64,000 nt of DNA from a phage, in sequence record OZ336095.1; one strand, given 5' to 3'. The position numbers were made by a program, and so were the translations under genes. Each line of letters starts with the position of its first letter. Position 1 is the first letter of the stretch. Below, piece by piece: positions 3,126-46,250 of this stretch. The notes under the pieces are model-generated. The model was not told the origin of the DNA and ran no database searches. It worked only from the letters and a program-made list of their open reading frames with translations.

Positions 3126-3127
3126 AA

Positions 3128-15430: not shown

Positions 15431-16471
15431 ATGGAGAAGTACACATTAAAAAAACTTCCCGATTCAGTTACACATGTCTTTATTGACTCTGACAGTATTG
15501 CCTATAAAGGTGCTTGTGTAGTTGAGAAAGCAAAATATAAATATGTCAATAAACTCACAGCAGAAGAATCTGAATCATTTGATAATGCAAAAGATGCTGC
15601 AAGATGGTTAGCAGACCAGAGAATCCTTGTGGAAGAGCTTGGCCTGACATTTGATGAAGATGAATGGGAAAGACAGACTTGGAAAGAAGCTAAGAGTGAG
15701 AAAGAAGCTATCATGGCTACTCAACAGGTTCTTCAGGAATGGCTTAAGGTGGTTGGTAAAGAGAGAACTTGGGTAGGTTATTTAACAGAGAAAGGTGTGC
15801 ATAAACATAAAGACATTAAAGGTCTTGAGCACCAATATCAAGGGAACCGTAAAGATGCTGTCACACCAACACACTTAGTTGCTTGTCGTGAGTATCTTCT
15901 GTCAAGACCAGAGTTCAAACTCTTAAAGGGAGGATTCGAAGCCGATTCAATCGTAATTGCTAAAGCTGAAAAGATGGGTAAGAAGGCTGCTCTTATGAGT
16001 ATTGACAAAGACCTTCGACAAGCTGAAGGAACTTATTGTATTGATATGACTTATGAAAAATCACCACTAATCTTTATTGCTGATAATAATGTTGGCGATA
16101 TCTGGGATTGTCCTATCAAATCAAAACCAAAAGCTGCAAAAACAGTTGGTGTAGGTTTTAAGTTCTTGTGCTATCAGGCTGTTGCTGGAGATAATGCAGA
16201 CAACTACTTCGGACTTAAAGGTGCTGGTAAAGTAGCTGTGATGAATGCTTTAGATGGTAAAGAGACCTACAAAGAGTGTCTTGATGCTATCTATGAACTC
16301 TATGCTAAAAAAGACTCTTACACCTATGTATCATGGGATGGACAGACTGTTACAAAGACACCGTTAGAGCTAATGGAACAGCATTTCTGGATAGCTTATC
16401 AAGAAAGAAATCCAAAAGATAATTTCTCTTTTAAGAAATATAATTGGGAGCCGTGTATGAATGAAGATTAA
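15431..16471 (+). CDS. 5'-3' exonuclease / flap endonuclease (RNase H-like)
   Basis: VFIDSDSIAYKGA N-terminal motif and EADSIVIAKA (EADD-type) motif of the FEN / 5' nuclease family. Confidence 0.6.
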   Translation: MEKYTLKKLPDSVTHVFIDSDSIAYKGACVVEKAKYKYVNKLTAEESESFDNAKDAARWLADQRILVEELGLTFDEDEWERQTWKEAKSEKEAIMATQQVLQEWLKVVGKERTWVGYLTEKGVHKHKDIKGLEHQYQGNRKDAVTPTHLVACREYLLSRPEFKLLKGGFEADSIVIAKAEKMGKKAALMSIDKDLRQAEGTYCIDMTYEKSPLIFIADNNVGDIWDCPIKSKPKAAKTVGVGFKFLCYQAVAGDNADNYFGLKGAGKVAVMNALDGKETYKECLDAIYELYAKKDSYTYVSWDGQTVTKTPLELMEQHFWIAYQERNPKDNFSFKKYNWEPCMNED

Positions 16472-16958
16472 AAGATTTGGCAATTGCCCCACCTATGGTC
16501 ATTGGGTATCTTTATGTGGGGAAGTTGACCCCACTAAACATTTTGGTTTTGTCTATTTAGTACACTGTAAGAAGACTGGACAATATTATATCGGAAAGAA
16601 ACAGCTTAATAGTGTGACCAAAAGAAAAGTTGCTGGCAAGACTCGGAAGAAGGTAGTCACTAAGGAGAGTGATTGGATGACTTACGAGACTTCTTCTGAG
16701 TATATTAAAAAAGATATTGAGAGCTTTGGAAAAGAATTTTTTGACTTTTACATTATCCAAACCTACTACACGAAAGGTGGTCTAGTTTATGGCGAAGCAA
16801 ACCTTCAACATAAATTCGATGTAATGACAAAAAGGATTGACTCTAAGCTCAGACTCTTCTACAATGCCAATATTGCAGCAATTAAGTTTATCACTAAAGA
16901 AACTTATGAAGATGCTGAAAAAAGAATCCATAAGGTAATGAAAGCAAATTGTGCTTGA
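16461..16958 (+). CDS. GIY-YIG-like domain protein (possible endonuclease)
   Basis: FGFVYLVHCKKTGQYYIGKK resembles the GIY...YIG motif spacing. Confidence 0.35.
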   Translation: MKIKRFGNCPTYGHWVSLCGEVDPTKHFGFVYLVHCKKTGQYYIGKKQLNSVTKRKVAGKTRKKVVTKESDWMTYETSSEYIKKDIESFGKEFFDFYIIQTYYTKGGLVYGEANLQHKFDVMTKRIDSKLRLFYNANIAAIKFITKETYEDAEKRIHKVMKANCA

Positions 16959-22739: not shown

Positions 22740-24884
22740 ATGAACAAAGTACAGATTATTAAAAAGAACGGCTCACTTGAAGAACCTGATATCAAAAAAG
22801 TTTTAGCAGCAGTCACAAAGTCAGCTAACAGAGTTGGTTATAAAGAGCTTCCACCAGATGTTACTCAAGCTCTTGAGTCAGCATTTATGAGGATTCTGGT
22901 AAAGTCCACTAAGCAGAATAATTTGCTAATTTCTGTAAATGATATTCACAGTATTGTTGAGGGTGCTTTGGCAGAAGTCAATCACGAGATTTATGAGTCT
23001 TACTCAACATATAGAAATTACCGTAAAGAAGTTGCTCAAAATTGGGATGAGCTTTACCAGAAGACCAAAGATACACTCTTCTTAGGTGACCGAGAAAACG
23101 CTAATTTTGACAGCAGTTTAATTTCTACAAAAGGTTCAATTATTCGTGGTTATCTGACTAAAGAAATCTTTAAACAGTACCACTTAACACCAGAGGAACT
23201 TGAAGCCATTGAAAAAGGGTTTATCTATATCCATGATTTAAGAGACCTAATTTTTGGTGGTATCAACTGTTGCCTGTTTGACATTGGTAAAGTCCTGAAA
23301 GGTGGCTTTGAAATGTCTGGCATCGAATATTGTGAACCGAAGTCTGTACTGTCAGCCTTACAGGTTATTGGTGATGTAGTTCTTTCAGCAACTGCACAGC
23401 AATTTGGTGGTTTTACTTTAGCAGAGATTGATAAGGTACTTGTACCGTATGCTAAGAAGTCTCTACGCTATCATGCTGAGAAAGCATCATCTTATGGTAT
23501 TCCTAAAGAGCATTACCACAATTATGTAATGGAGCAGTTACAAATTGAACTGACTCAAGGTTTTCAGTCACTTGAGATGAAACTAAATACCGTGCCTTGT
23601 AGCCGTGGTGATTTTGCATTCACAACTTTGACATTCGGGTTACTTGAATCAGATATGTCCAATGAAGATAACCGACTGCAATATATGATTGCAAGTACTC
23701 TCCTAGATGTTCGTATGAATGGTCAAGGTAAGAGCAAGAAACCTGTTGTATTCCCTAAACTGGTTTATATTTATGACCAGAAGAGACATAATGAGAATAT
23801 CTGCCAAGGCCACCTGTACAGTAAAGCTATAGAGTGTTGCTCTAAAGCGATGTATCCAGATTTCTTAAGTGTGTCTGGTCATGGTGCTGTAGCAGAAGCT
23901 TTTGAGCGTTCTGGCAAGGTAATTTCGCCGATGGGTTGTAGAGCCTTCTTATCTCCATATCTTAATGAGGATGGGGAAGAGTTCTACGTTGGTCGTGCTA
24001 ACATTGGTGCTGTATCTTTGAACTTACCGATGATTTATCAGTACGCCAAAGAGAATGGTTTAGATTTCTGGAAAGAGCTTGATAAGTACCTAGAGATGAT
24101 TCGCAGCTTCCACAAGAAACGCTACGAAATGATTGCTAATATGCCAGCAAGTTCTAACCCTCTCGCATTCACACAGGGTGGTCTATACAAAGGGAATAAG
24201 AAACCTACTGATAAGGTTGGCTGGGATATCGTGAAGTCCTTCACAGCTTCTTTTGGGGTTACTGCGCTTGATGAATTATCTGTTCTTGCTGAAGGTAAAC
24301 GACTTCATGAAGTTGGAAGTTGCAGTTTTGCATACGATGTTCTGGAATACATCAACATGAAAACTGAAGAGTTTAAAAATGAAGATGGTTTCTTATATGC
24401 AGTCTATGGCACTCCAGCAGAATCACTTTGTGGAACTCAGCTAAAACAGTTCAGAGATATGTTTGGAGTTATCAAAGGTGTTTCTGATAAGGAATACTTT
24501 ACAAACAGCTTCCATATGAATGTTGCAGCAGACATCACACCATTTGAGAAGCAGGACTTAGAAGAACCTTTCTTCCATATCTGTAGAGGTGGCAGAATCC
24601 AGTATGTAAGGGTAGCTAATCCAGAAAACTTATCAGCACTTAAGAGTTGTATTACAAGAGGGATGTTGAAAGGTTTCTATCAGGGACTTAACTTTGACTT
24701 AGCAATCTGTGAACATTGTGGTAACAGACCAAAGGCTGATGTTGAAGAGTGTGAGGTTTGCCATTCACATGATATCTCTGTGATTAACAGGGTGTGTGGG
24801 TATCTTGGATGGACTAAGATTAAAGGTGAATCCCGAATGAACGATGCAAAAATCGCTGAGATTCGTGATAGAGTCTCTATGTAA
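22740..24884 (+). CDS. nrdD: Anaerobic ribonucleoside-triphosphate reductase
   Basis: 714 aa; C-terminal Cys cluster and glycyl-radical motif RVCGYLG. Confidence 0.9.
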   Translation: MNKVQIIKKNGSLEEPDIKKVLAAVTKSANRVGYKELPPDVTQALESAFMRILVKSTKQNNLLISVNDIHSIVEGALAEVNHEIYESYSTYRNYRKEVAQNWDELYQKTKDTLFLGDRENANFDSSLISTKGSIIRGYLTKEIFKQYHLTPEELEAIEKGFIYIHDLRDLIFGGINCCLFDIGKVLKGGFEMSGIEYCEPKSVLSALQVIGDVVLSATAQQFGGFTLAEIDKVLVPYAKKSLRYHAEKASSYGIPKEHYHNYVMEQLQIELTQGFQSLEMKLNTVPCSRGDFAFTTLTFGLLESDMSNEDNRLQYMIASTLLDVRMNGQGKSKKPVVFPKLVYIYDQKRHNENICQGHLYSKAIECCSKAMYPDFLSVSGHGAVAEAFERSGKVISPMGCRAFLSPYLNEDGEEFYVGRANIGAVSLNLPMIYQYAKENGLDFWKELDKYLEMIRSFHKKRYEMIANMPASSNPLAFTQGGLYKGNKKPTDKVGWDIVKSFTASFGVTALDELSVLAEGKRLHEVGSCSFAYDVLEYINMKTEEFKNEDGFLYAVYGTPAESLCGTQLKQFRDMFGVIKGVSDKEYFTNSFHMNVAADITPFEKQDLEEPFFHICRGGRIQYVRVANPENLSALKSCITRGMLKGFYQGLNFDLAICEHCGNRPKADVEECEVCHSHDISVINRVCGYLGWTKIKGESRMNDAKIAEIRDRVSM

Positions 24885-25937: not shown

Positions 25938-26423
25938 ATGAATTACATGGAGATTCGACCATTTGACACAGCTAATGGTGAAGGGGTTCGTGTAAGCCTC
26001 TTCGTAGCTGGTTGTAAGCACCACTGTGAAGGTTGCTTTAATAAGGAATCTTGGAAGTTTAATGCTGGTAAAGAGTTCACTTATGCAAACCTTTATGGCA
26101 TCATTAAGTTAATGGATGATAATGCCATCAGTGGGCTGTCAATACTTGGTGGAGAACCTCTGGATGATAGAAACATTCAAGAGGTTACCAACATATGCAA
26201 ACGTATTAAAACCGTTTACCCAGAAAAATCTATCTGGCTCTGGACAGGTTTTCAGTTACATGAAAAAATTCACCTTGATGTGATGAAATATGTTGACGTG
26301 GTGATTGATGGTAAGTATGATTCATCTAAACCAACAGTTAAACCATATCGTGGTTCTGATAACCAAAACCTCTGGAGAAAAGAGTATGGGTGGCAAGGTG
26401 ATTGTCAGTGGAGAGCAGAGTGA
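25938..26423 (+). CDS. nrdG: Anaerobic RNR activating enzyme (radical SAM)
   Basis: 161 aa; CKHHCEGCFN Cys cluster; size and position typical of phage NrdG. Confidence 0.75.
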   Translation: MNYMEIRPFDTANGEGVRVSLFVAGCKHHCEGCFNKESWKFNAGKEFTYANLYGIIKLMDDNAISGLSILGGEPLDDRNIQEVTNICKRIKTVYPEKSIWLWTGFQLHEKIHLDVMKYVDVVIDGKYDSSKPTVKPYRGSDNQNLWRKEYGWQGDCQWRAE

Positions 26424-26535: not shown

Positions 26536-26802
26536 ATGGGAATTTTAGGTAATATGAAAGCTGGATTCTTGAAGGCACTGGCAAAAGCAGCAGCAATTGT
26601 TTCTATGACTGGAAAGCAGGTCGGTGTAGATGCTTCAGCGGTTGCACAGGTTCTTACAAGCCAAATTGAACAGCAGCCTTACATCTATGTAGGTCGTGGC
26701 AAAGGTGGTAAGAAACAAGCCCACCGTCCGTCTGGTGCAGCAGCTATTAAACGAGCAGCTAAGAAAGCTCGTAACCGTAAACGTAATAAGAAGGCTAAAT
26801 AA
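26536..26802 (+). CDS. Hypothetical protein with basic C-terminal tail, 88 aa
   Basis: ORF 26458..26802 trimmed to Met 27 so the (GA)n tract is not translated. Confidence 0.4.
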   Translation: MGILGNMKAGFLKALAKAAAIVSMTGKQVGVDASAVAQVLTSQIEQQPYIYVGRGKGGKKQAHRPSGAAAIKRAAKKARNRKRNKKAK

Positions 26803-26804
26803 TC

Positions 26805-27125
26805 ATGAGCAAAGTTTATAACACTCGTAAATTACAGATTTTCTTACTGTGCCAGTTTATGGCTAGAGAGCATAACTCCTACTATTGTGGTACAGGATTC
26901 ATTAGTGATAATGATGGCTCATATCTCCCATTCAAAGAGGCTGTAAAACTCTTCAATGAAGAGAAAAGCTCTGAGAAAGATATTGAAAAGGTTAAATTAA
27001 CCTATAGTAAGAAAGATAAGAAGATTATCTGCCTAGATAACTTTGTGAAAGTTACCAAAGAAACTAAAGAGTTAATGGAAGAAAGTGAAATTCCATTCAC
27101 AAGAATCTTGAAAGTAGCTCAGTAA
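26805..27125 (+). CDS. Hypothetical protein, 106 aa
   Basis: ORF track. Confidence 0.45.
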   Translation: MSKVYNTRKLQIFLLCQFMAREHNSYYCGTGFISDNDGSYLPFKEAVKLFNEEKSSEKDIEKVKLTYSKKDKKIICLDNFVKVTKETKELMEESEIPFTRILKVAQ

Positions 27126-27138
27126 GCAGATACTATAA

Positions 27139-27165
27139 GGGAACTGTAAAGGTTCCCTTTTTATT
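27139..27165 (+). terminator. Rho-independent terminator
   Basis: gggaac...gttccc hairpin followed by TTTTT. Confidence 0.6.
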
Positions 27166-27176
27166 TTGGAGATAAT

Positions 27177-27692
27177 ATGTATCTGTCAAATCTGAAACGT
27201 TCTGCTGCAATGTCAGTGTTAAGACTCAGTTTTGAGGAACGTCAAGAGTTCATTGACTCCCACCAATACGACCCTTCCAACTCCAATCACATGATTCTCT
27301 GGAATCGTGAGAGTACTCGTGAAAGAGCATTATTTCGATATTACCCACACTATACCATAGACAACCTATATGAATGCTTTGTTGTGAAGAACACCATTAC
27401 AGTACTCAATAAACTTTGCAGATACACAGGCAGTCAATCCTTCACATTAGGTCACCACAAACCTGTTACAAAAGGTGGTGAACATCACTGTGCAAACTGG
27501 TTTATCCAGACTAAACTTGATAACCAGAAGCAAGGGGATAGTCTTTTAAGTACCCCTAAGATGACCTACGAAGAGCAAGAGAAATATATCAAAAACAATA
27601 TGCCAGATGTGCTTGACAACAACTATACAGATTTGGCAATATCTCTCCTGTTGAAGTTCGAGACAGTTTATAGGGCAACTTATAATGGCTAA
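27177..27692 (+). CDS. HNH endonuclease
   Basis: LGHHKPVTKGGEHHCANW HNH-type motif. Confidence 0.55.
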   Translation: MYLSNLKRSAAMSVLRLSFEERQEFIDSHQYDPSNSNHMILWNRESTRERALFRYYPHYTIDNLYECFVVKNTITVLNKLCRYTGSQSFTLGHHKPVTKGGEHHCANWFIQTKLDNQKQGDSLLSTPKMTYEEQEKYIKNNMPDVLDNNYTDLAISLLLKFETVYRATYNG

Positions 27693-27963
27693 AGAGAAGT
27701 GGGAGATTTTACCATTAGTCAGTGAAGGTGGTAATGGTTGTGAGATGTACATGATACGTGGTCATGTTCCAGAACCAATTGCACTTGAGATGGTAAACAA
27801 CTTTACAGATGGCTCTTACAAAGACTTAGGAGAGCCAACTATAAAGCAGCAATGGGTAAAGCCTGTACCAGACAGCACAGGTAACTGTAGTGTACTTTAT
27901 CACGTTGTAGACCCTGCAAAATGCAAATCTGCAATGGCAGTAACAAACGTAACTTTTGATTGA
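27685..27963 (+). CDS. Hypothetical protein, 92 aa
   Basis: ORF track. Confidence 0.4.
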   Translation: MAKEKWEILPLVSEGGNGCEMYMIRGHVPEPIALEMVNNFTDGSYKDLGEPTIKQQWVKPVPDSTGNCSVLYHVVDPAKCKSAMAVTNVTFD

Positions 27964-27974: not shown

Positions 27975-28856
27975 ATGAAAACATCTATCCGTGTTACAGT
28001 TCATTCACCAACTAAAGGGACTCATGAAGAAGAGTTTAACATCGTCCAATTCCCTTCTGGTGAGATTGGTGGACACTTTTCGCCAGAGTTTGTTGATTTT
28101 ACTGCTTATGCAGCATCATCTATCAACAATGTGATTATGATTGTAAAAGGTTATGATAAGGACACATTGTTTGCTGTGGCACTTGCTAAAGAAGCAATTG
28201 ATGATTTAGTACCTCATAAGTTTGCTATGAAGACTGCTATCTTTTACTATTTGCCAAATGCACGTTACGACCGTCACATGTTTAAAGGTGATGCAGCAGC
28301 TTTGAAAGTGTTTGCACAACAGGTTAATGCAATGGGTTTTGATGCAGTCTGTGCAGTTGACCCTCACAGCTATGTACCAGATAACCTGTTTAACTGCTTC
28401 CAGAGTATTCCTCAAAAGGAAATTGCAGTCCACTATGCAAATGACCCACTGATTGATTACTTAGTAGCCCCAGATGCAGGTGCTGCTAAGAAGATTGCAG
28501 AGACTGCTAAAGAGGTGGATAAACCATACATCACAATGTCTAAAGTGCGTAACCTTAAGACTGGTGAAATTACTGGTATGCGAATCCTTGATGATGTTGA
28601 TTTGACAGATAAAACCGTCATGATTCTGGATGATATCTGTGATGGTGGTCGAACCTTCATAGAAGCAGCGAAGCATCTTCGTGAAGCAGGTGCAAAACGT
28701 GTGGAACTTTATGTAACACATGGTATCTTCTCTAAAGATGTTGAAAACCTTCTTGACAATGGTATCGACCATATTTACACTACAAACTCTTTAGGCGAAG
28801 CTAAAGACCGTGGCTTAACACATTACAGTCAAGTTACTGTAGCAAACCTTGATTGA
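27975..28856 (+). CDS. Ribose-phosphate pyrophosphokinase (Prs) homolog; candidate ADPR-PP synthetase of NARP1
   Basis: Prs-like motifs FPSGEIGG, YYLPNARYDR, VDPHS, VMILDDICDGGRTF (PRPP-binding loop), GAKRVELYVTHGIFS; ATG at 27975 (track start is TTG); immediately upstream of NAMPT-like gene. Confidence 0.65.
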   Translation: MKTSIRVTVHSPTKGTHEEEFNIVQFPSGEIGGHFSPEFVDFTAYAASSINNVIMIVKGYDKDTLFAVALAKEAIDDLVPHKFAMKTAIFYYLPNARYDRHMFKGDAAALKVFAQQVNAMGFDAVCAVDPHSYVPDNLFNCFQSIPQKEIAVHYANDPLIDYLVAPDAGAAKKIAETAKEVDKPYITMSKVRNLKTGEITGMRILDDVDLTDKTVMILDDICDGGRTFIEAAKHLREAGAKRVELYVTHGIFSKDVENLLDNGIDHIYTTNSLGEAKDRGLTHYSQVTVANLD

Positions 28857-28865
28857 AAGTTTATA

Positions 28866-28887
28866 GGGGCTTAAAAGCCCCATTTTG
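28866..28887 (+). terminator. Rho-independent terminator (weak T-run)
   Basis: ggggctt-aaa-agcccc hairpin followed by ATTTTG. Confidence 0.45.
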
Positions 28888-28901
28888 AGAGAGATTAAAA
28901 G

Positions 28902-30683
28902 ATGACTAAATCACTTTATGCAGTACCAGCAGGTTTAAACGCAGATGCTTACAAATCTGGTCATGTTTACCAGTACCCTAGTGCAACAGAATACTTGATG
29001 TTCAACCTGACACCACGTAGTGACAAATGGTTTAACAGCCCATTAGCAATTGATGGTGTAGTAGCTTTTGGTATTCAACGTTTCGTTAAAGATTACTTGA
29101 TAGACCACTGGAACGCCACTTTCTTTGAACGTGATAAAAAAGAAGCCATTGATGAAATATTAGAAGTCATGAATGGTGTTCTGGGTAAAGATGCTATCGG
29201 TCGAGAGCATTGGGAAGCACTTCACGACTTAGGTTATCTACCAGTTGAAGTATACGCTGTAGAAGAAGGTACAGTTGTCCCTATGCGTGTCCCAATGATT
29301 GTCTTCCAGAACACTGTTTCAGGTTTCCATTGGGTAGCGGGGTATCTGGAAGATGCTTTCTCTGCTGAGATTTGGAAGGCTTGTACCATTGCAACTATTG
29401 CATTGCATTATAAACGCATCTGTAAGAAGTGGGCTGACCTTACTTGCGACAACGACTTACATTTACCTTATCAGTGCCATGACTTTGCTATGCGTGGTAT
29501 GTCCGGCTTTACTGATGACGCATTTAACGCTGTAGGCCACTTAACCAGCTTTAAAGGAACTGATAGCTTCCCTGCTGTGTATACGGCTAAACGAATCTAT
29601 GGACAGTCTTACCCAATCTCTGATATTGGTAGCTCTGTACCAGCCACTGAGCACTCTGTAATGTGTGCAAACATTGCTTGGGAAGGTGGTAATGAGTTGA
29701 TTGAAGAAGAAAGACGCTTTAAAGGTGAGTTACAAACCTTCCGTCGTTTCTTAACAGAAACTTACCCAACTGGTATTGCAAGTATTGTTTCAGATACTTA
29801 TAACTTCTGGAGAACTGTGTCAGAAATCTTACCAGCACTCCGTAAAGAAATTATGGAACGTGATGGTAAACTGGTAATTCGCCCTGACTCTGGAGACCCT
29901 GTACATATTGTCACAGGTTATAAAGCAATCCACTTAGAGTGTGCTAAAAAGGCTTATTACGAGCACCTAAGCAAGCTTGAAGCCAGCGACACAATGTTGA
30001 ATGCTGTTCTGAACATGAAGCTTGAAAACATCAACTATGGTATTGCTGGATGGCTACTGTCAGAAGGCTACGAAATGGTTGTTGACAGAGAAGACTTTGA
30101 AGTTGCTGATACAGTGCTGTTGAAAAACGCTTATATGGTTGGTTCTGCAAACGTTGTAACACGTCCTGTAGCGGAGATTGATGGAGCTATCAAGACACTG
30201 TATAACATCTTTGGGGGAACTATTAACTCTAAAGGGTTTAAGGTACTGGATGAGCACATCGGCCTTATCTATGGTGACTCTATCACGCTGGAACGTGCAA
30301 ACGAAATCATGAAGCGTCTGTATGAAATGGGTTTTGCAAGCTCTAACGTAGTATTTGGTGTAGGCTCTTACACTTACCAGTACATGACTCGTGACACCTT
30401 TGCATTTGCTGTCAAAGCAACTCTTGCAAGCATTGGTGGTAAAGAGATTATGCTTGCAAAAGACCCTAAAACAGATAGTGGTGTTAAGAAATCTGCCTTT
30501 GGTGGTGTAGCACCTATGTGGGATGGTGAAAATCTGAAAGCTGTAGATGGCTATGGGTTCCAGAGCTTTGCAGATGCACTTGAACACCCAGCTTGTGCTT
30601 TACGTCTAGTCTTTAGTGACTCTGAGCAGTTCGGCTACACAACTCTTGGTGATATTCGAAATAATATTGACAAGCAGCTTTAA
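28902..30683 (+). CDS. Nicotinamide phosphoribosyltransferase (NAMPT/NadV) homolog; candidate nicotinamide ADPR transferase of NARP1
   Basis: 593 aa; N-terminal NADAYKSGHVYQYP resembles the NAMPT DSYKVTHYKQYP signature. Confidence 0.7.
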   Translation: MTKSLYAVPAGLNADAYKSGHVYQYPSATEYLMFNLTPRSDKWFNSPLAIDGVVAFGIQRFVKDYLIDHWNATFFERDKKEAIDEILEVMNGVLGKDAIGREHWEALHDLGYLPVEVYAVEEGTVVPMRVPMIVFQNTVSGFHWVAGYLEDAFSAEIWKACTIATIALHYKRICKKWADLTCDNDLHLPYQCHDFAMRGMSGFTDDAFNAVGHLTSFKGTDSFPAVYTAKRIYGQSYPISDIGSSVPATEHSVMCANIAWEGGNELIEEERRFKGELQTFRRFLTETYPTGIASIVSDTYNFWRTVSEILPALRKEIMERDGKLVIRPDSGDPVHIVTGYKAIHLECAKKAYYEHLSKLEASDTMLNAVLNMKLENINYGIAGWLLSEGYEMVVDREDFEVADTVLLKNAYMVGSANVVTRPVAEIDGAIKTLYNIFGGTINSKGFKVLDEHIGLIYGDSITLERANEIMKRLYEMGFASSNVVFGVGSYTYQYMTRDTFAFAVKATLASIGGKEIMLAKDPKTDSGVKKSAFGGVAPMWDGENLKAVDGYGFQSFADALEHPACALRLVFSDSEQFGYTTLGDIRNNIDKQL

Positions 30684-30698
30684 AAGTATATGATAAGA

Positions 30699-30719
30699 GG
30701 CTCCTACGGGAGCCTTTTT
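30699..30719 (+). terminator. Rho-independent terminator
   Basis: ggctcc-tacg-ggagcc hairpin followed by TTTTT. Confidence 0.6.
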
Positions 30720-30733
30720 AATTTCTGGAGAAG

Positions 30734-31081
30734 ATGATGGATAGCCTTTCTATATGGTTTAACAAGAAACCTGTGCAACCAAAATACTTACAAGTTGCCT
30801 ATACAGACATCCTTGAAGTTCTCGGTAAAGAAAAGTTTGAAAAGTTTTGTGAAGGTATCTACAATCACCACTGCCAATTTGCTACAAAAGAAGGTATGTT
30901 TGTCATAGAACAATTCTTTGGCAGAGACCCAGATGACTACGAAGAGATTAGCTTTGTAATGAAATACATGATAGAGTATATTGAAAATCGTGGATTCGAA
31001 GTTAATCCTGAATTTTATGAACATGAGGGTGTACCTTTAGCAAAAGGTTTCGATGGCATACTCGTTAACTGGACTTGGTGA
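30734..31081 (+). CDS. Hypothetical protein, 115 aa
   Basis: ORF track. Confidence 0.45.
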   Translation: MMDSLSIWFNKKPVQPKYLQVAYTDILEVLGKEKFEKFCEGIYNHHCQFATKEGMFVIEQFFGRDPDDYEEISFVMKYMIEYIENRGFEVNPEFYEHEGVPLAKGFDGILVNWTW

Positions 31082-31086
31082 AAACT

Positions 31087-31452
31087 ATGAAAATCAAAGA
31101 GATGAACATCAACATTGTCTTAGAAGAACGTTGGGAGAACATCAATAAGCCTGAAGATGGCCATAAGTTTCTTAACAAAATTTTAGTAGCAGCTAAAGAA
31201 GAACTGACTGGCAAGGTCGCAGCAGCAATTACAATAAAGGTCTGCGTAAAAGGTCTTCCAGACAATCACCAATTTGCACTTGACGAGTTTAAAGGAAGCT
31301 TCTACAATCCAAACAAACAGATGCTTGAAAGTAACTTTGCAGTGTCTACAAGTATCGTTCATGACAGAAGCTTTATCCTTTACAAGAATATGAGAGGTGA
31401 GTCATGCAAGCATGCAAGCATATTGGATAGAAATTTTACTGTCACTCGGTAG
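31087..31452 (+). CDS. Hypothetical protein
   Basis: ATG at 31087 (MKIKEM; track start 31075 is TTG). Confidence 0.45.
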   Translation: MKIKEMNINIVLEERWENINKPEDGHKFLNKILVAAKEELTGKVAAAITIKVCVKGLPDNHQFALDEFKGSFYNPNKQMLESNFAVSTSIVHDRSFILYKNMRGESCKHASILDRNFTVTR

Positions 31453-31588
31453 TGTAGCAGTCCTTGTTTATCTTCTTTGTAAGTACTTTGCAGAACATAA
31501 GAAGTGTGACTACTGTAACGGAGAAGGGTATACAAGAGCAGGTTGTTGCCCTATGTGTGGTGGTTCTGGTAAAATGTTTAATAAGTAA
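31412..31588 (+). CDS. Small membrane protein with C-terminal Cys-rich zinc-ribbon-like motif
   Basis: Hydrophobic segment then CDYCNGEGYTRAGCCPMCGGSG. Confidence 0.35.
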   Translation: MQAYWIEILLSLGSVAVLVYLLCKYFAEHKKCDYCNGEGYTRAGCCPMCGGSGKMFNK

Positions 31589-38522: not shown

Positions 38523-39308
38523 ATGGGTATTGTAAAAATCATCAAAGGTGATATCTTTGACGCATTTGATAAAGGTAAGTTTGACATCATTGGTCACGGT
38601 TGCAACTGTATGAACTTCATGGGTGCAGGTATTGCAGCAACTATTTCCAAGCGTTATCCAAAAGTGTATGATACTGACACAGAAGTTTACCTGTTTGCAG
38701 GTGGCATTCGTCACAAACCCTGTGAAAATTTACTAGGTAATTTCTCTGTAGCACGTTTAAAACAAGGCCGTATAGCTAACCTTTACACCCAACTTCATAC
38801 TGGTAAAGATGCCCGATACAGTGCTTTAGAGTCATCTTTGAAACAGCTTAACAGATACTGTGAAGTTAACCAGTTGAAGAAAGTTGGTCTACCTATGATT
38901 GGTGCAGGTATCGGTGGGCTTGACCCTCAAGCTGTCACAGTTATCATTAATCAGGTGATGAAGAGTGTAGATGTTTATCTGTATGTCTATGAAGCAAAAA
39001 TGTATAATGAGTTACACTCAGGTTGGAAAAACTACTGTGAACCAGAATACTTTGCAGGTGTAGTTGTGTTCACAGATAACGAAGTTACCCTCTTCAGACG
39101 AAGAAAAGGTAAGATACATCAAAGTAACCCTCCGGTTGAAAAGATGTCTCTGAGTAACGCTCTAGTTACCCACCTGTCGAAGAGCAATCACAGGATTGCA
39201 GTAACATTTGGCAGTGATGCAGATACTTATATCTATGCAAGAACTGATGAGGATATCGAGACAGTTTTCTCTTCACCAGAAGTTACCTTCTTAGACGCAA
39301 AGAACTAA
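38523..39308 (+). CDS. Macro domain protein (ADP-ribose binding/processing) with C-terminal extension
   Basis: IKGDIFDAFDKGKFDIIGHGCNCMNFMGAGIAATI and GLPMIGAGIGGL resemble macro-domain Gly-rich diphosphate-binding loops. Confidence 0.55.
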   Translation: MGIVKIIKGDIFDAFDKGKFDIIGHGCNCMNFMGAGIAATISKRYPKVYDTDTEVYLFAGGIRHKPCENLLGNFSVARLKQGRIANLYTQLHTGKDARYSALESSLKQLNRYCEVNQLKKVGLPMIGAGIGGLDPQAVTVIINQVMKSVDVYLYVYEAKMYNELHSGWKNYCEPEYFAGVVVFTDNEVTLFRRRKGKIHQSNPPVEKMSLSNALVTHLSKSNHRIAVTFGSDADTYIYARTDEDIETVFSSPEVTFLDAKN

Positions 39309-39774: not shown

Positions 39775-39829
39775 ACGGGGAGGGAATGACCTTCCCCACT
39801 AAATAAAGTCCTAAACTGGAGATTCAAAA
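39775..39829 (+). repeat. Cassette type 1 (hairpin ggggagggaatgaccttcccc + actaaataaagtcctaaactggagattc + ATG)
   Basis: One of six near-identical copies preceding small ORFs. Confidence 0.7.
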
Positions 39830-40213
39830 ATGGCATATCGTGCACCTAAATTCATCAACAAAGACAACTTTCGCAACGCACTGGAGAAGTCACTTGATGA
39901 GAATTTTAAAGGTAACATTATCGTTGTTCACGCATTCAATTTTAAGTATGATGTAAACGGGAATAGAATCAACCATTACACGGCAACCATGTTAGATGGT
40001 ACACTTTCAAGTGAAAAAGCCGTACTAAATGCACTGGCAGGACGTGGAAAGGTATTAGTAAGATGTGATAAGAGACGTTATCAGGGCGGCGCATATGGTT
40101 ATGATGATGCTGTTTACCATCTTGAAAATATGGGCTATCAAGTAGAAAAAGCTGGAGCATCACAAATCATCGGCAGCGATGGTTATGTAACTATCTTCAA
40201 AATTAACAAATAA
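39830..40213 (+). CDS. Hypothetical small protein (cassette ORF), 127 aa
   Basis: ATG directly after cassette RBS GGAG; ends KINK inside next cassette. Confidence 0.5.
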   Translation: MAYRAPKFINKDNFRNALEKSLDENFKGNIIVVHAFNFKYDVNGNRINHYTATMLDGTLSSEKAVLNALAGRGKVLVRCDKRRYQGGAYGYDDAVYHLENMGYQVEKAGASQIIGSDGYVTIFKINK

Positions 40214-40299
40214 AGTACTTTACAAGGGGCTTATAGTTCGATAAAGTAAGCCCCAGATAAAGAGCTTTACCACTAAATCCTAAATTGGAGAACTTAAAA
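40214..40299 (+). repeat. Cassette type 2 (agtactttaca + hairpin ggggcttat...ataagcccc + agataaagagctttaccac.aatcctaaa.tggaga + ATG)
   Basis: One of seven copies; hairpin arms covary between copies. Confidence 0.7.
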
Positions 40300-40593
40300 A
40301 TGGCTATTATCAAAAACGTTGTAATTACTGCAAAGACTCGTGATGACGCTCGCGTTATGGCTAAAAAGTTATGCGGGAAAGTGGTTGACAATGGAAAACA
40401 ATCCGCTGTAAGGTGGGGCGTGAAGGTTGATAAACAGTTGAAGTTAAAAAATTCACCGATAAACCTTTTTACATGTGTAAACACTATCGGGAAGACAAAT
40501 GTATACACGAAAAAGGCATACATTAGGCGCGTAGCATTAACATCCCCCATTCGTACAATGAGAAGTTATGCAAAGCTGAAAATTAACAAATAA
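40300..40593 (+). CDS. Hypothetical small basic protein (cassette ORF), 97 aa
   Basis: ATG at 40300 after cassette (track start 40285 lies in cassette). Confidence 0.45.
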   Translation: MAIIKNVVITAKTRDDARVMAKKLCGKVVDNGKQSAVRWGVKVDKQLKLKNSPINLFTCVNTIGKTNVYTKKAYIRRVALTSPIRTMRSYAKLKINK

Positions 40594-40678
40594 AGTACTT
40601 TACAGGGGGCTTAAAAGTTGATATCTTAAGCCCCAGATAAAGAGCTTTACCACTCAATCCTAAACTGGAGATTCTAAA
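40594..40678 (+). repeat. Cassette type 2 copy
   Basis: Hairpin variant gggggcttaa...ttaagcccc. Confidence 0.7.
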
Positions 40679-41191
40679 ATGAAAACTGTAGACGCTACCT
40701 TTGAAGTTGTAAAAGAAAAATTTTCCATCATCTACGAAGCGGTAAATTGCTACGAAGCAAGCCATAATCTCGATAATTGGGAGTTTACAAACGACCATCA
40801 AGGCGGTGTGACTGTTAAAAATCCTAACTGTCAGCATAATGATTTTAAATATGCAATCCCTTTGCATTACAGCCTTAAACAGCTTTCAAGTGACTATGCA
40901 AAACAAGGCCGGGAAAATCCATCAAAAGAGGCTTACGCAAGCTTACAAAAAGAACTAGAAAGAGATTTAGAGGCTTCAGAGTACAGCCTTGCCGCGAAAG
41001 TTGTGGATGCAAACGGTAACACGGTTTTAGAAAGTTTTTATCTTGGTTATGCTTTCGATTGGTGCTATCGTGACGGCGATGATTTAGAGGATAGACTAAA
41101 AGAAGAGGTGAACAATTCAGACGCAGAAACTGAAGTATTAGAACGTTTGGAATCGTTGAAAGATTCAGTGATGAATATCTTTAAGAACTAA
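40679..41191 (+). CDS. Hypothetical protein (cassette ORF), 170 aa
   Basis: ORF track; cassette upstream. Confidence 0.5.
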   Translation: MKTVDATFEVVKEKFSIIYEAVNCYEASHNLDNWEFTNDHQGGVTVKNPNCQHNDFKYAIPLHYSLKQLSSDYAKQGRENPSKEAYASLQKELERDLEASEYSLAAKVVDANGNTVLESFYLGYAFDWCYRDGDDLEDRLKEEVNNSDAETEVLERLESLKDSVMNIFKN

Positions 41192-41283
41192 ATAGATTTC
41201 TTTACACGGGGTTATCAAGCTGGTAGGATAGCCCCAGATAAAGAGATTTATCAAATAAAGCCCTTAAACTAGGAGATTCTAAA
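41192..41283 (+). repeat. Cassette type 2, diverged copy
   Basis: Hairpin ggggttatc...gatagcccc with compensatory changes. Confidence 0.6.
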
Positions 41284-41580
41284 ATGAAATTATCAAATCA
41301 AGTGCGTGAAAATCTGAGCAAATTACTCAACAAAATTGATTTCATTGAAACATCAAGGAATAGCCATGATGTTATGGAATGGTTACACGGCAAAATAAAA
41401 GGTCGTCGTGTAGTGATTTGCTTATGGAACAGTTGCAGGGAGTATAAAAAACCTGTATTACAAGTCAATATCTATGATGATACTTTTAAAAGTCCAGTAA
41501 AGTCTAAAAGCGATTTATTAGAATCTTATGAGATATCTGTAAATGGCAAAGTATCACGTAATGAGGTAACACCATGTTAA
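41284..41580 (+). CDS. Hypothetical protein (cassette ORF), 98 aa
   Basis: ORF track. Confidence 0.5.
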   Translation: MKLSNQVRENLSKLLNKIDFIETSRNSHDVMEWLHGKIKGRRVVICLWNSCREYKKPVLQVNIYDDTFKSPVKSKSDLLESYEISVNGKVSRNEVTPC

Positions 41581-41906
41581 TGACTGGTATCACTGCAATC
41601 ATTGCCATTTTCGCGCTATATAAGGCATATAAAGCCTATAATCTAGCAAATAAGGCAATCACACAGCAGGTTAGTAATAACCTTGTAGAAAGCTTTCTAG
41701 GGCGCCTCAGTGATGAGCAAATAAAGCGGCTAGAGATGAGCTTCAGATATAAAGCGAAAACCTATCAGATAAGTGACATCTTTAAAGATGATTTTCAGTT
41801 AGTTGATGATTATAATTCTCTGATAAATGCTTTAAACGTCAGTGACTTGAAAGACTATCACGCTGTAATTGTTCAAGAATTGAGCAAACGAAAACAAAAC
41901 TGTTGA
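41574..41906 (+). CDS. Hypothetical protein with N-terminal transmembrane helix, 110 aa
   Basis: MLMTGITAIIAIFALYKAY; start overlaps previous stop. Confidence 0.45.
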   Translation: MLMTGITAIIAIFALYKAYKAYNLANKAITQQVSNNLVESFLGRLSDEQIKRLEMSFRYKAKTYQISDIFKDDFQLVDDYNSLINALNVSDLKDYHAVIVQELSKRKQNC

Positions 41907-41935
41907 CACTGGTTTTCAGATAGATTAAATTACAC
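41907..41935 (+). promoter_or_regulatory. Sigma70-like promoter candidate
   Basis: TTGACA, 17 nt spacer, TAAATT; near-identical copy at 43521. Confidence 0.45.
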
Positions 41936-41939
41936 ACCA

Positions 41940-41994
41940 ACGGGGAGGGAATGACCTTCCCCACTAAATAAAGTCCTAAACTGGAGATTCAAAA
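41940..41994 (+). repeat. Cassette type 1 copy
   Basis: Same hairpin and leader as 39775..39829. Confidence 0.7.
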
Positions 41995-42153
41995 ATGTTT
42001 TTTGCAGGTGATAAAGTTGTCTGGAATGATATAGATGACGGTTTATGTACGAAAGTTGTTGTTATCTTAGAAATTGATTATATCACTGGTGTTGCAACTG
42101 TAGCAGATAATGATATAATCTTTGATGTCTTAATTAGTGAACTGTCAAAATAA
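41995..42153 (+). CDS. Hypothetical small protein, 52 aa (below ORF-track cutoff)
   Basis: ATG directly after cassette; MFFAGDKVVWNDIDDG...VADNDIIFDVLISELSK. Confidence 0.35.
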   Translation: MFFAGDKVVWNDIDDGLCTKVVVILEIDYITGVATVADNDIIFDVLISELSK

Positions 42154-42178
42154 AATCCTTAAACTAGGAGCTTTTAAA

Positions 42179-42451
42179 ATGTACACTACTAACAACGGTC
42201 GCACTTTAAACGTAACCCTTCGTCACTATGTGAACGGTGTAATGCACTTCGAGGATTTACAAGCCGAACAACATATCTTAGATTGGCAACTAGCAGGACT
42301 CCAAAAAACTGCTACCGGATACGGCAAAAAGATTCCAACTAGCTGGAAAGTACACTATGAAGGACGTTTGCGCAGAATTTACCAAGATGTATGCAGCAAT
42401 AGCGCATCTAGTTACATCATAGTAAAAGGTAAAAAGCTGCATTTAGTATAA
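42179..42451 (+). CDS. Hypothetical small protein, copy 1 (90 aa)
   Basis: ATG after AGGAG RBS (track start 42137 is GTG); MYTTNNGRTLNVTLRHYVNG... Confidence 0.45.
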   Translation: MYTTNNGRTLNVTLRHYVNGVMHFEDLQAEQHILDWQLAGLQKTATGYGKKIPTSWKVHYEGRLRRIYQDVCSNSASSYIIVKGKKLHLV

Positions 42452-42536
42452 AGTACTTTACAGGGGGCTTATAAGTCTGTACAGTAAGCTCCCGATAAAG
42501 AATTTTATCACTCAATCCTAAATTGGAGACTCTAAA
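42452..42536 (+). repeat. Cassette type 2 copy
   Basis: Identical to copy at 43027..43111. Confidence 0.7.
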
Positions 42537-42692
42537 ATGGCTATTAATAATCGTGAACTGGCTGTATTAAAAGCACGTTTGACCGTCAACCGCATCAACG
42601 TTATTACATCAGCAGCACCGGACGAAACATTACACACTGTAGCAGATAATGATATAATCTTTGATGTCTTAATTAGTGAACTGTCAAAATAA
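42537..42692 (+). CDS. Chimeric small ORF created at duplication junction (51 aa)
   Basis: N-terminus equals start of 43112 ORF (MAINNRELAVLKARL...), C-terminus equals end of 41995 ORF (...VADNDIIFDVLISELSK); in frame across junction at 42635/42636. Confidence 0.3.
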   Translation: MAINNRELAVLKARLTVNRINVITSAAPDETLHTVADNDIIFDVLISELSK

Positions 42693-42717
42693 AATCCTTA
42701 AACTAGGAGCTTTTAAA

Positions 42718-43026
42718 ATGTACACTACTAACAACGGTCGCACTTTAAACGTAACCCTTCGTCACTATGTGAACGGCACTTTAAACGTAACCCTTCGTCA
42801 CTATGTGAACGGTGTAATGCACTTCGAGGATTTACAAGCCGAACAACATATCTTAGATTGGCAACTAGCAGGACTCCAAAAAACTGCTACCGGATACGGC
42901 AAAAAGATTCCAACTAGCTGGAAAGTACACTATGAAGGACGTTTGCGCAGAATTTACCAAGATGTATGCAGCAATAGCGCATCTAGTTACATCATAGTAA
43001 AAGGTAAAAAGCTGCATTTAGTATAA
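42718..43026 (+). CDS. Hypothetical small protein, copy 2 with 12-aa internal duplication (102 aa)
   Basis: Same as 42179..42451 plus duplicated TLNVTLRHYVNG. Confidence 0.45.
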   Translation: MYTTNNGRTLNVTLRHYVNGTLNVTLRHYVNGVMHFEDLQAEQHILDWQLAGLQKTATGYGKKIPTSWKVHYEGRLRRIYQDVCSNSASSYIIVKGKKLHLV

Positions 43027-43111
43027 AGTACTTTACAGGGGGCTTATAAGTCTGTACAGTAAGCTCCCGATAAAGAATTTTATCACTCAATCCTAAATTG
43101 GAGACTCTAAA
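43027..43111 (+). repeat. Cassette type 2 copy
   Basis: As above. Confidence 0.7.
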
Positions 43112-43516
43112 ATGGCTATTAATAATCGTGAACTGGCTGTATTAAAAGCACGTTTGACCGTCAACCGCATCAACGTTATTACATCAGCAGCACCGGACGA
43201 AACATTACACAACATTATCGGGAAGATTCAAGGCGTTATCTTAGACGTTGAAAATGTAAAAAACTCATTAGCCGACGTTGCAGCAGGTATCACACTAGAT
43301 GGCGCACAATATGAAATGTCCGACATGTTAGGTAAATCAAAGGTAATGAATAAAGAGATTGATTTAAAAATGTTTAGATTTGCCGTGAAAGTGTGGCTAT
43401 CTGTTGAGTATGACGCTAATTTTGCAATCGCTGATTTCTTTGCCACATGGTTGCAACGTAATTTGGCGAGTCATGACTTCCGTGACATCTGCGATGCAAT
43501 TTACGCAGAACTCTAA
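43112..43516 (+). CDS. Hypothetical protein (cassette ORF), 134 aa
   Basis: ORF track. Confidence 0.5.
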   Translation: MAINNRELAVLKARLTVNRINVITSAAPDETLHNIIGKIQGVILDVENVKNSLADVAAGITLDGAQYEMSDMLGKSKVMNKEIDLKMFRFAVKVWLSVEYDANFAIADFFATWLQRNLASHDFRDICDAIYAEL

Positions 43517-43520
43517 AAAT

Positions 43521-43549
43521 TTTATTGACACTGATTTTTAGATAGATTA
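43521..43549 (+). promoter_or_regulatory. Sigma70-like promoter candidate
   Basis: TTGACA, 17 nt spacer, TAAATT. Confidence 0.45.
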
Positions 43550-43561
43550 AATTACTCATCA

Positions 43562-43617
43562 ACGGGGAGGGAATAACCTTCCCACTAAGTAAAGTCCTTA
43601 AACTAGGAGATTCAAAA
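43562..43617 (+). repeat. Cassette type 1 copy
   Basis: Slightly diverged hairpin. Confidence 0.65.
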
Positions 43618-43866
43618 ATGATGAATTTTTTAAATATCCCTGATACTTGCCGACTGTTGACGCAACCAGAAAATTTAGGCAAACCTTTCCTGTACCATAT
43701 GCCAGACAATACACCAAAAACATATAGCTACACGGTTAACCGCTTTACGGGTTACGCTGCAAAAAACGGTTACAAGGTTACTACTCAAAAAGTAACACTA
43801 TTTACAAATATCGAAGAGCTTCCAACAATCGCTGTAAAACTAATATTTACGAAGAAGACGCAATAA
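43618..43866 (+). CDS. Hypothetical protein (cassette ORF), 82 aa
   Basis: ORF track. Confidence 0.45.
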   Translation: MMNFLNIPDTCRLLTQPENLGKPFLYHMPDNTPKTYSYTVNRFTGYAAKNGYKVTTQKVTLFTNIEELPTIAVKLIFTKKTQ

Positions 43867-43951
43867 AGTACTTTACAGGGGGCTTAAAAGTTGATATCTT
43901 AAGCCCCAGATAAAGAGCTTTACCACTAAATCCTAAACTGGAGATTCTAAA
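43867..43951 (+). repeat. Cassette type 2 copy
   Basis: As above. Confidence 0.7.
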
Positions 43952-44155
43952 ATGACTATTATTAACGGCGTATCTATCGAGACTGTACATATCAAAGACA
44001 TTAAAGTTGGTGATGTAGTCCTTTCCCACGGCGTAGAGAAAACTGTCACTGCAAAGGATATCAAAGATGATTCTTTCATGGGTAGAACTCTCTTCGGTGA
44101 TTCTTATTGCTTAGGTTATCTTGCAGTTTTAAAAGTTGTAAAAAATAACAAATAA
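43952..44155 (+). CDS. Hypothetical protein (cassette ORF), 67 aa
   Basis: ORF track. Confidence 0.45.
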   Translation: MTIINGVSIETVHIKDIKVGDVVLSHGVEKTVTAKDIKDDSFMGRTLFGDSYCLGYLAVLKVVKNNK

Positions 44156-44240
44156 AGTACTTTACAAGGGGCTTATAGTTCGATAAAGTAAGCCCCAGAT
44201 AAAGAGCTTTACCAATCAATCCTAAACTGGAGATTCTAAA
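44156..44240 (+). repeat. Cassette type 2 copy
   Basis: As above. Confidence 0.7.
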
Positions 44241-44783
44241 ATGAAATGTTTTCACGGTACTACTCAAGAAAATTTCCTCAACCTGATTAATAACGGTAAC
44301 AAGCCATCAGGTGCATGGAATTGTTCGGATATGGACGGCAATTTTTACGTGTATCCAGAAAATAAAATCTATGGCGACGATGAGGAAGAGATAACATCGG
44401 AGGGCATTCAGCAAGCTCTAGGCAATGCCACTATCACCGCAGCTTTTCAGATGAAGACTCAAAATATTGTTATCTTAGAACTCGATATTCCAGAGGATGA
44501 GCTAAATGATGATTATTCTTGTGATAATATGTCTGGCGTAGCAAGTTTTACAGAATACTTCGATTTAAATTGGATTAAAAAGGTTTACGTAACCGAGTTT
44601 AATGCGATGTTTTCACCTTTTTGTCTTCCTTCACTGGATAACCCAAATATGAACTATCTTGATGAGACATTAGAACTACTTGCTAAAAGTGTTCAACAAT
44701 CGGACAGTATTCAGGTTTTTTGTGACATCATGGATACACTGACAGAAAACATCGCAGAAGAGGATTTAAAGAGCTTTTTCTAA
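44241..44783 (+). CDS. Hypothetical acidic protein (cassette ORF), 180 aa
   Basis: ORF track. Confidence 0.5.
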   Translation: MKCFHGTTQENFLNLINNGNKPSGAWNCSDMDGNFYVYPENKIYGDDEEEITSEGIQQALGNATITAAFQMKTQNIVILELDIPEDELNDDYSCDNMSGVASFTEYFDLNWIKKVYVTEFNAMFSPFCLPSLDNPNMNYLDETLELLAKSVQQSDSIQVFCDIMDTLTENIAEEDLKSFF

Positions 44784-44848
44784 AACCTATACAATCACCT
44801 TATAAACACTGATTAGCCCCTCACAGGGGCTTTTAGAGGGCTTAAATC

Positions 44849-45082
44849 ATGCTTACAACCGTTTATCTCATCCTTTCTATTTGTAATGGCCATTCATGTG
44901 ACTTTAAAGGGCTTGAGGAGTTTACAGGGAGTAAAGAAAATGCTGTTCAAGTGTGCCAGATAGCAAGGCAAGACTACCCCGCCAGTGATGATATACAATG
45001 TTACTTTAAGACAGAAGATGAAGACGGTATCTATTTTGACAGCGTAGATGGTCAGTATGAAATTATCATTGAAAAAGACTAG
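44849..45082 (+). CDS. Hypothetical protein, 77 aa
   Basis: ORF track. Confidence 0.45.
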   Translation: MLTTVYLILSICNGHSCDFKGLEEFTGSKENAVQVCQIARQDYPASDDIQCYFKTEDEDGIYFDSVDGQYEIIIEKD

Positions 45083-45116
45083 ACAAGCCTGATAAAAATC
45101 TGTAAATTGTCAATAA

Positions 45117-45172
45117 ACGGGGAGGGAATGACCTTCCCCACTAAATAAAGTCCTAAACTGGAGATTCTAAAA
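45117..45172 (+). repeat. Cassette type 1 copy
   Basis: As above. Confidence 0.7.
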
Positions 45173-45514: not shown

Positions 45515-45711
45515 TCAATAACTTACAAAAAACTTTTAAAAAAGTGTTGACAATACCCATTGACATTGGTAACTTTGTTCGAGGGGGTTATCTAAAAGGG
45601 ATTCACTTAACAGATTCTTTATATATAAACTTAAAAATTGCTTGCAATCACTTTCTAAAAGCCCTATAGTATCTATCAAGCAAAACAACTTCCTAAACTG
45701 GAGAAATCAAG

Positions 45712-46239: not shown

Positions 46240-46250
46240 AGTATCTATCA

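Follow-up and report, generated by a model that had tools for sequence, protein, structure and literature searches.

We analysed a 64,000-nucleotide stretch of phage DNA (sequence record OZ336095.1, the whole of which we call the window) with respect to two adjacent, co-oriented genes, adps and namat. The first encodes a relative of phosphoribosyl pyrophosphate (PRPP) synthetase (Prs) and the second a relative of nicotinamide phosphoribosyltransferase (NAMPT). We found that the pair is very probably an operon of NARP1, a phage NAD+ reconstitution pathway made up of Adps and Namat. An earlier reading of this DNA made from its letters alone (the sequence-only reading) had proposed NARP1 rather than salvage of nicotinamide mononucleotide (NMN). 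That choice is borne out by gap-free orthology with the pair of Escherichia phage JohannRWettstein (Bas63), to which Adps is 80% (233/293) and Namat 98% (583/593) identical, and by the clamp of Namat and the catalytic residues. This reading is supported but not new, NARP1 having first been found in Bas63: the locus is the NARP1 type locus in a sister isolate of Bas63, already known and not a new candidate. The only overstatement of the sequence-only reading concerned novelty and interest, as the locus is a textbook instance. The two genes lie exactly where that reading had placed them, with a spacer of 45 nucleotides (nt) between them:

27975 to 28856, + strand: adps, 882 nt, 293 amino acids (aa), a putative Prs-like ADP-ribose pyrophosphokinase (synthetase of ADP-ribose pyrophosphate, ADPR-PP), ortholog of bas63_0079

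28902 to 30683, + strand: namat, 1782 nt, 593 aa, a putative NAMPT-like nicotinamide ADP-ribose transferase, ortholog of bas63_0080

The window comes from a Felixounavirus. It is colinear with Bas63 (MZ501086) from 24.9 kb to the end of that genome at 87.1 kb, and the colinearity continues past this end and wraps into the first 222 bases, so that the structural module is the sole part of Bas63 missing from the window. The genes bas63_0079 and bas63_0080 agree with the window pair in length (882 and 1782 nt), in the spacer of 45 nt and in their neighbours. A 2.85-kb region was matched in 258 phage records, with identity up to 98%, and these are nearly all Felixounavirus phages of Escherichia, Salmonella, Shigella and Citrobacter. 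No identical genome was found among those deposited; the best match was about 93-95.5% identical over about 90% of a 25-kb query.

NARP1 was discovered in genes 79-80 of Bas63 (bas63_0079/0080), which its discoverers treat as one operon (bioRxiv 10.1101/2024.02.11.579819). When these genes are deleted, plaques on cells carrying SIR2-HerA fall about 20-fold and NAD+ depletion is deeper. Rescue by Bas63 is still seen in a pncC nadR double mutant host, and ADPR-PP (m/z 720.010) appears only when wild-type Bas63 infects cells that have the defence system. The enzymes of Bacillus phage SPbetaL1 have been studied in vitro, where Adps converts ADP-ribose (ADPR) and ATP to ADPR-PP and Namat converts ADPR-PP and nicotinamide to NAD+. 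SPbetaL1 Adps acts on ADPR and not as a Prs, Namat prefers ADPR-PP over PRPP, and the production of NAD+ is abolished by Adps K162A and by Namat R306G. NARP1 also neutralises type I Thoeris, DSR1, DSR2 and SEFIR. For the window we directly established orthology, synteny, the catalytic and specificity residues, the modelled fold and the lack of an NMN adenylyltransferase; the in vivo phenotype and the formation of ADPR-PP are taken from the literature on Bas63, and the in vitro reactions from that on SPbetaL1.

Matches to Pfam, PHROG and NCBIfam were highly significant for both proteins, in agreement with the Prs-like and NAMPT-like assignments of the sequence-only reading, and the motifs it had quoted (VMILDDICDGGRTF, YYLPNARYDR, GAKRV...THGIFS and DAYKSGHVYQYP) are all found in the translations. 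Adps contains the Pfam domains Pribosyltran and Pribosyl_synth and matches PHROG 619, 'ribose-phosphate pyrophosphokinase' (E=2.7e-98). Of the Prs models, however, only the broad TIGR01251 gives it a score over the cut-off (127 against 113 bits). Against the other ten NCBIfam models for ribose-phosphate diphosphokinase or PRPP synthetase it scores 42-106 bits, with cut-offs of 296-536 (93.6 bits against 297 in one example). By these equivalog and subfamily cut-offs Adps falls outside the housekeeping class I Prs enzymes. Lys190 of Adps aligns with K162 of SPbetaL1 Adps, which is catalytic and essential. The comparison of both proteins by profile and structure, which had been suggested as a check, thus places Adps under the Prs equivalog cut-offs, and it places the Namat model nearest to the crystal structures of Namat, ahead of NadV and NAMPT.

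Namat matches Pfam NAPRTase (E=9.5e-35), PHROG 448 (E=5.7e-202), NF006629 (468 bits) and the Namat structure 9w5w in the Protein Data Bank (E=4.3e-128). An AlphaFold2 model built with 56 homologs had a mean local confidence (pLDDT) of 95 and a predicted template-modelling (TM) score of 0.92. When this model was searched with Foldseek, the top hits were the Namat crystals 9w5x/9w5w (TM 0.95 on target, 39% identity), and Haemophilus NadV and human NAMPT ranked below them. A 'selectivity clamp' that is specific to Namat has been defined in a structural paper (PMC12774641). The selectivity-clamp helix was found by residue mapping:

30363 to 30395, + strand: selectivity-clamp helix motif GSYTYQYMTRD of Namat, aa 488-498, including Y490 and Y494

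The selectivity-clamp loop reads TPRSDKW, with K42 followed by W43, and is identical to that of Bas63 Namat. Bas63 Namat is cited as an example of the K/Y-type loop, in which K or Y precedes the residue that stacks on the adenine, the alternative being an arginine. We mapped the 20 residues of SPbetaL1 Namat that contact NAD+ onto the window protein and found that 16 are identical, the four substitutions being R40 to K42 (then W43, as in Bas63), S190 to A196, A362 to S460 and F392 to Y490. The contact set in the window thus consists of D15, Y17, K42, F195, A196, R198, D221, A248, R327 (equivalent to R306) and D329, followed by G458, D459, S460, G488, S489, Y490, Y494, T496, R497 and D498. The NAMPT-type catalytic core is also kept, with H251 (in TEHS), R327, D221 and F195 corresponding to the catalytic His, R306, D215 and F189 of SPbetaL1 Namat. 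The features that mark a NARP1 locus are found together here, namely a Prs-family gene placed by identity and score with the phage Adps clade beside namat, the Adps lysine, the clamp helix, the clamp loop and the catalytic core.

At 593 aa, Namat is longer than SPbetaL1 Namat (491 aa) and most homologs (about 495 aa), and the excess of about 100 aa that the sequence-only reading had noticed is real. It is due to two insertions, which were located by alignment:

29673 to 29735, + strand: Namat insertion site 1, aa about 258-278, 21 aa compared with 7 in short Namats

29919 to 30182, + strand: Namat insertion site 2, aa about 340-427, 91 aa compared with 15-19 in short forms

Relative to SPbetaL1 Namat, the net insertions are about 14 and about 75 aa. 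The larger one, site 2, forms a small folded alpha/beta subdomain that is not in SPbetaL1 Namat or in NAMPTs, and no structural relative of this subdomain was found. Length at both sites varies among homologs. The long form of Namat (about 580-610 aa) was found in 254 phage records, as far out as Suspvirus-like, Citrobacter, Yersinia and Pectobacterium phages, where overall identity is 46-60%.

The two genes differ in how closely they follow Bas63, the difference lying in the first part of adps:

27975 to 28454, + strand: divergent N-terminal allele of adps (aa 1-160), about 65% identical to Bas63 DNA

The divergence covers the first ~480 nt of the gene and begins sharply at the start codon; the flanking DNA is 98% identical upstream and 91-98% downstream. 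Over aa 1-160, Adps is 69% identical to its Bas63 ortholog with a saturated synonymous divergence (dS) of 2.47, a non-synonymous divergence (dN) of 0.235 and a dN/dS of about 0.1. Over aa 161-293 identity is 92.5% and dS 0.39, and the dS of namat is 0.14. The identity of the N-terminal segment to that of the window has a bimodal distribution among 254 Felixounavirus-type records, of which 155 are at least 90% identical, 97 are at 60-80% and 2 lie between. The window therefore has the commoner allele in the genus, and Bas63, the phage studied experimentally, carries the other. Decay and positive selection were ruled out as explanations of the divergence, given a dN/dS of about 0.1 with dS saturated. 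These same values indicate, on sequence grounds, an old allele that purifying selection has maintained and that recombination has exchanged. Both alleles have the flexible-loop motif LPNARYDRHMFKGDAAALKVFA in identical form, and the window Adps has an intact catalytic lysine and PRPP-type loop.

We propose the following route for the pair. An NAD+-depleting defence (SIR2-HerA, type I Thoeris, DSR1/2, SEFIR or similar) would split NAD+ into ADPR and nicotinamide. Adps would then use ATP to pyrophosphorylate the free ribose of ADPR, giving ADPR-PP, and Namat, by NAMPT-type chemistry involving His251, Arg327, Asp221 and Phe195, would let nicotinamide displace the pyrophosphate of ADPR-PP to give NAD+. 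The adenine clamp, made up of the K42-W43 loop and of Y490 and Y494 of the clamp helix, would select ADPR-PP over PRPP. NAD+ would be regenerated in two steps, without NMN or an adenylyltransferase. From orthology we infer that the window Adps makes ADPR-PP from ADPR and ATP and that the window Namat makes NAD+ from ADPR-PP and nicotinamide. The enzymes of this isolate, including its N-terminal allele of Adps, are expected to act as in Bas63 and SPbetaL1, and the pair is predicted to counteract NAD+-depleting defences independently of host NMN salvage.

Several points weigh against a NARP1 function of this pair. The in vitro work rests on the SPbetaL1 enzymes, since Bas63 Adps purified poorly, and Namat also forms NMN from PRPP in vitro. 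In pairwise score the window Adps is only moderately nearer to SPbetaL1 Adps (36% identity, 101 bits) than to E. coli Prs (30% identity, 66 bits), and its N-terminal 160 aa are only 69% identical to Bas63. Finally, the window does not include the structural module, some 25 kb of the genome, for which we relied on the Bas63 annotation only. The formation of NMN by Namat could be taken to favour conventional salvage, in which a true PRPP synthetase and a true NAMPT/NadV would make NMN and host NadR or PncC/NadD would convert it to NAD+, either as in NARP2 or as a metabolic boost. Database names and the Pfam and NCBIfam labels, which read Prs and NAMPT/NAPRTase, also fit such a pathway. A phage partner for salvage was sought by Pfam scans, pooled and of individual open reading frames (ORFs), that covered essentially all window ORFs of at least 45 aa. 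No domain of NMN adenylyltransferase (CTP_transf_like), Nudix, NadR or PnuC type was found in these scans, as the sequence-only reading had stated for the adenylyltransferase, and the window does not have the NMN adenylyltransferase gene beside a NAMPT homolog that would mark NARP2 or NadV salvage. A stronger argument is that, as published, the Bas63 pathway does not depend on host pncC or nadR: the Bas63 orthologs function without both and make ADPR-PP in vivo. SPbetaL1 Adps does not behave like a Prs in vitro, the window Adps scores far under every Prs equivalog cut-off, and the adenine-clamp motif that separates Namat from Nampt is present. We consequently rejected a salvage pair of Prs and NAMPT and regard it as highly improbable.

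A second alternative accepts the family of the pair and holds that the N-terminal allele of Adps alters or abolishes the pyrophosphorylation of ADPR, so that the pathway is impaired or another ribosyl substrate is used. It draws on the low identity to Bas63 in this segment (about 65% in DNA and 69% in protein over aa 1-160) and on the fact that the published experiments used Bas63, which has the other allele. However, the segment is under purifying selection, its allele is the commoner one in the genus, LPNARYDRHMFKGDAAALKVFA is the same in either version, and the catalytic lysine and the PRPP-type loop are intact. Activity is also kept in Adps proteins that are far more divergent, namely those of SPbetaL1 (36% identical), P. 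foliorum, Vibrio phage Gary and mycobacteriophage DyoEdafos. We therefore consider an altered allele only marginally less improbable than salvage, and an active NARP1 operon remains much the best account of the pair.

Comparison with characterised systems places the window closest to Bas63. Both phages are of the same genus and have the same locus, gene lengths, spacer, terminator and intergenic hairpin (with one loop change); their Namats are alike in both insertions and in the clamp residues, and the C-terminal 133 aa of Adps are 92.5% identical. They differ in the N-terminal 160 aa of Adps, an anciently diverged allele (dS about 2.5). The NARP1 of SPbetaL1, source of the enzymes studied in vitro and of structures 9w5w/9w5x, shares with the window the adps-namat order, the Adps lysine, the clamp-helix motif and the Namat fold. 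However, the window Namat is only about 39% identical to that of SPbetaL1 and its clamp loop has K-W where SPbetaL1 has R40. The two insertions are not in the crystal structure, and the two Adps proteins do not align at the N-terminus. NARP2 of Vibrio phage KVP40 (NadV/Nampt and the Nmnat NatV) likewise uses a phage NAMPT-family enzyme to restore NAD+ against depletion defences. In contrast to the window, which has no NMN adenylyltransferase gene, an Adps neighbour and a clamped Namat, NARP2 uses PRPP and needs that adenylyltransferase. Cellular salvage by Prs and NAMPT/NadV belongs to the same protein superfamilies and also combines pyrophosphoryl transfer from ATP with a phosphoribosyl-type transfer to nicotinamide. 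Its substrates are ribose-5-phosphate and PRPP, whereas those of NARP1 are ADPR and ADPR-PP, and its enzymes differ from an Adps that fails the Prs equivalog models and a Namat with an aromatic adenine clamp.

An extension of the NARP1 reading concerns a further protein encoded in the window. Defences with a RES domain (aRES) cleave NAD+ to ADPR-1''-phosphate, which Adps cannot use. In 15% of NARP1 operons there is also a gene for Adpp, a Macro phosphatase of Poa1p-like type by which ADPR is restored; this arrangement is called NARP1-AP and was surveyed within two genes of NARP1 (10.64898/2026.01.28.702374). The window has a single Macro gene:

38523 to 39308, + strand: Poa1p/TARG1-like Macro-domain protein, 261 aa, ortholog of bas63_0095 ('putative phosphatase'), Pfam Macro E=5.3e-7

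This protein matches PHROG 335 'phosphatase' (E=5.7e-115), and among solved structures it is nearest to TARG1/OARD1 (1.4e-6), with Poa1p a weaker match (3.6e-3). Its Macro domain (aa 3-154) aligns at 28% identity (E=6e-15) with the full-length Adpp of Vibrio phage Gary and shares with it the motifs HxCNC..MGxGIA and GLPxIGxG. The remaining C-terminal region of about 100 aa is found only in Felixounavirus-like phages. The gene stands 15 genes and 7.8 kb downstream of namat, and not inside or within two genes of the operon as in NARP1-AP.

The Macro protein is possibly an Adpp-like ADPR-1''-phosphate phosphatase, judging by its sequence. It could then dephosphorylate the product of aRES and feed ADPR to Adps, so that the phage would have a dispersed three-enzyme NARP1-AP. 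Consistent with this, the protein falls in the Poa1p/TARG1 class and aligns over the full length of the validated Gary Adpp with its motifs, and the gene is on the same strand as NARP1 and conserved across the genus. The published survey would have missed it, because it was limited to two genes around NARP1. The Gary operon (Adps-Adpp-Namat; bioRxiv 10.64898/2026.01.28.702374) has the same three kinds of protein as the window, although its Macro gene is in the operon and encodes 158 aa without the extra C-terminal region. However, Macro homologs were found in about 3000 phage records, and since T4-like phages without NARP1 are among them (Tk.4), the gene is not specific to NARP1. Its distance from namat, the many other substrates of Macro domains (such as O-acetyl-ADPR and protein or nucleic-acid ADP-ribosylation) and the extra C-terminal region also speak against this role, and the text and supplements of the preprint were found to contain no challenge of a Felixounavirus with aRES. 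We therefore consider a dispersed NARP1-AP unlikely, though far from as improbable as salvage or an impaired allele. If it were true, NARP1 of Felixounaviruses would also defeat RES-type NAD+ phosphorylases.

The NARP1 locus lies downstream of nrdD (22740 to 24884, NRDD PF13597, E=2e-114) and of nrdG (25938 to 26423), which encodes a radical-SAM activase, in keeping with the position given by the sequence-only reading. The ATG of adps at 27975 is preceded by GAGAGAGA, and translation is unlikely to start instead at an in-frame TTG at 27960. Two RNA signals were found in the operon:

28866 to 28887, + strand: intergenic hairpin GGGGCT-TAAA-AGCCCC (28866-28881) followed by ATTTTG, -12.6 kcal/mol, z=-2.74

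30695 to 30723, + strand: intrinsic terminator closing the operon, a 10-bp stem with 5 G-C pairs (30695-30718) followed by a T-run

Each gene had been said to have its own terminator. The one after namat is strong and is identical in Bas63. The intergenic hairpin, however, with its 6-bp stem and just four Ts, was not called by the terminator scan; it is kept in Bas63 and would terminate weakly or partially at best, or else stabilise the mRNA. The flanking genes (26536-27963 and 30734-31588) all belong to PHROGs of unknown function, and nothing ties them to NAD+. Accessory genes of RyR/RyDEP type or an in-operon Macro gene were looked for at the locus and none is present. Two genes 5' of adps, the gene at 27177-27692 (+ strand; PHROG 3500, function unknown) has a weak HNH-endonuclease-like signal (PHROG 2214, E=2.8e-4; HHKPVTKGGEHH...N). 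It is located 3' of a terminator at 27137-27159 and may therefore share the transcription unit of adps.

Elsewhere in the genome the window is mosaic relative to Bas63, with small genes extra or missing and different homing endonucleases. The nrdD gene on the + strand is unbroken and has no intron, whereas in Bas63 it is split by a 741-bp intervening sequence with the homing endonuclease bas63_0068. The homing endonuclease bas63_0046 has no counterpart in the window, at about 6850, and a SegE-type GIY-YIG endonuclease is encoded at 16461-16958. About 1.4 kb at 2646-4056 (- strand) has no counterpart in Bas63, an indel of early-region accessory genes; its two ORFs (2685-3125 and 3128-3715) match PHROGs 5926 and 4652, of unknown function. 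An array of 24 tRNA genes (Rfam RF00005) occupies 58411-63553 (+ strand), as is typical for Felixounaviruses. The 1.6 kb or so at 46883-48504, where the gene strand switches from + to -, has no ORF of at least 45 aa and no match to an Rfam family, and the equivalent region of Bas63 is likewise unannotated.

Two families of repeats are found in the array of small genes downstream. An intergenic cassette at 39777-46636 (+ strand) is present in about 9 copies, each immediately 5' of a small + strand ORF, in the order hairpin GGGGAGGGAATGACCTTCCCC, then ACTAAATAAAGTCCTAAACTGGAGATTC, then ATG. The second family is 120 nt long and has 6 copies at 40199-44260. Both are probably terminator, promoter and ribosome-binding-site modules of the early-gene array. 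In the same region 42097-42500 is duplicated at 42636-43075, over about 0.4 kb and with 100% identity; the second copy has an additional 36-nt tandem repeat, so that the peptide TLNVTLRHYVNG is present twice. Bas63 does not have this duplication, which is either a recent event or an assembly artefact.

The practical value of these findings lies in annotation of the adps and namat genes of Felixounaviruses. In deposited Felixounavirus records the pair is named 'ribose-phosphate pyrophosphokinase' and 'nicotinamide/nicotinate phosphoribosyltransferase' or hypothetical protein, and among the records listed the names Adps and Namat are never used. Our literature search found no paper that joins Felixounavirus with NARP1 by name, and in the NARP1 literature we found nothing on a dispersed pathway in Felixounavirus, on the insert subdomain of Namat or on the alleles of Adps. 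This anti-defence operon can be recognised by a reader of the sequence alone. The two N-terminal alleles of Adps, the insert subdomain of Namat and the unlinked Adpp-like Macro protein are modest variations that offer leads on how NARP1 has diversified. The insert subdomain and the two alleles could be adaptations in the arms race over NAD+, for example in evading host inhibitors or through altered regulation.

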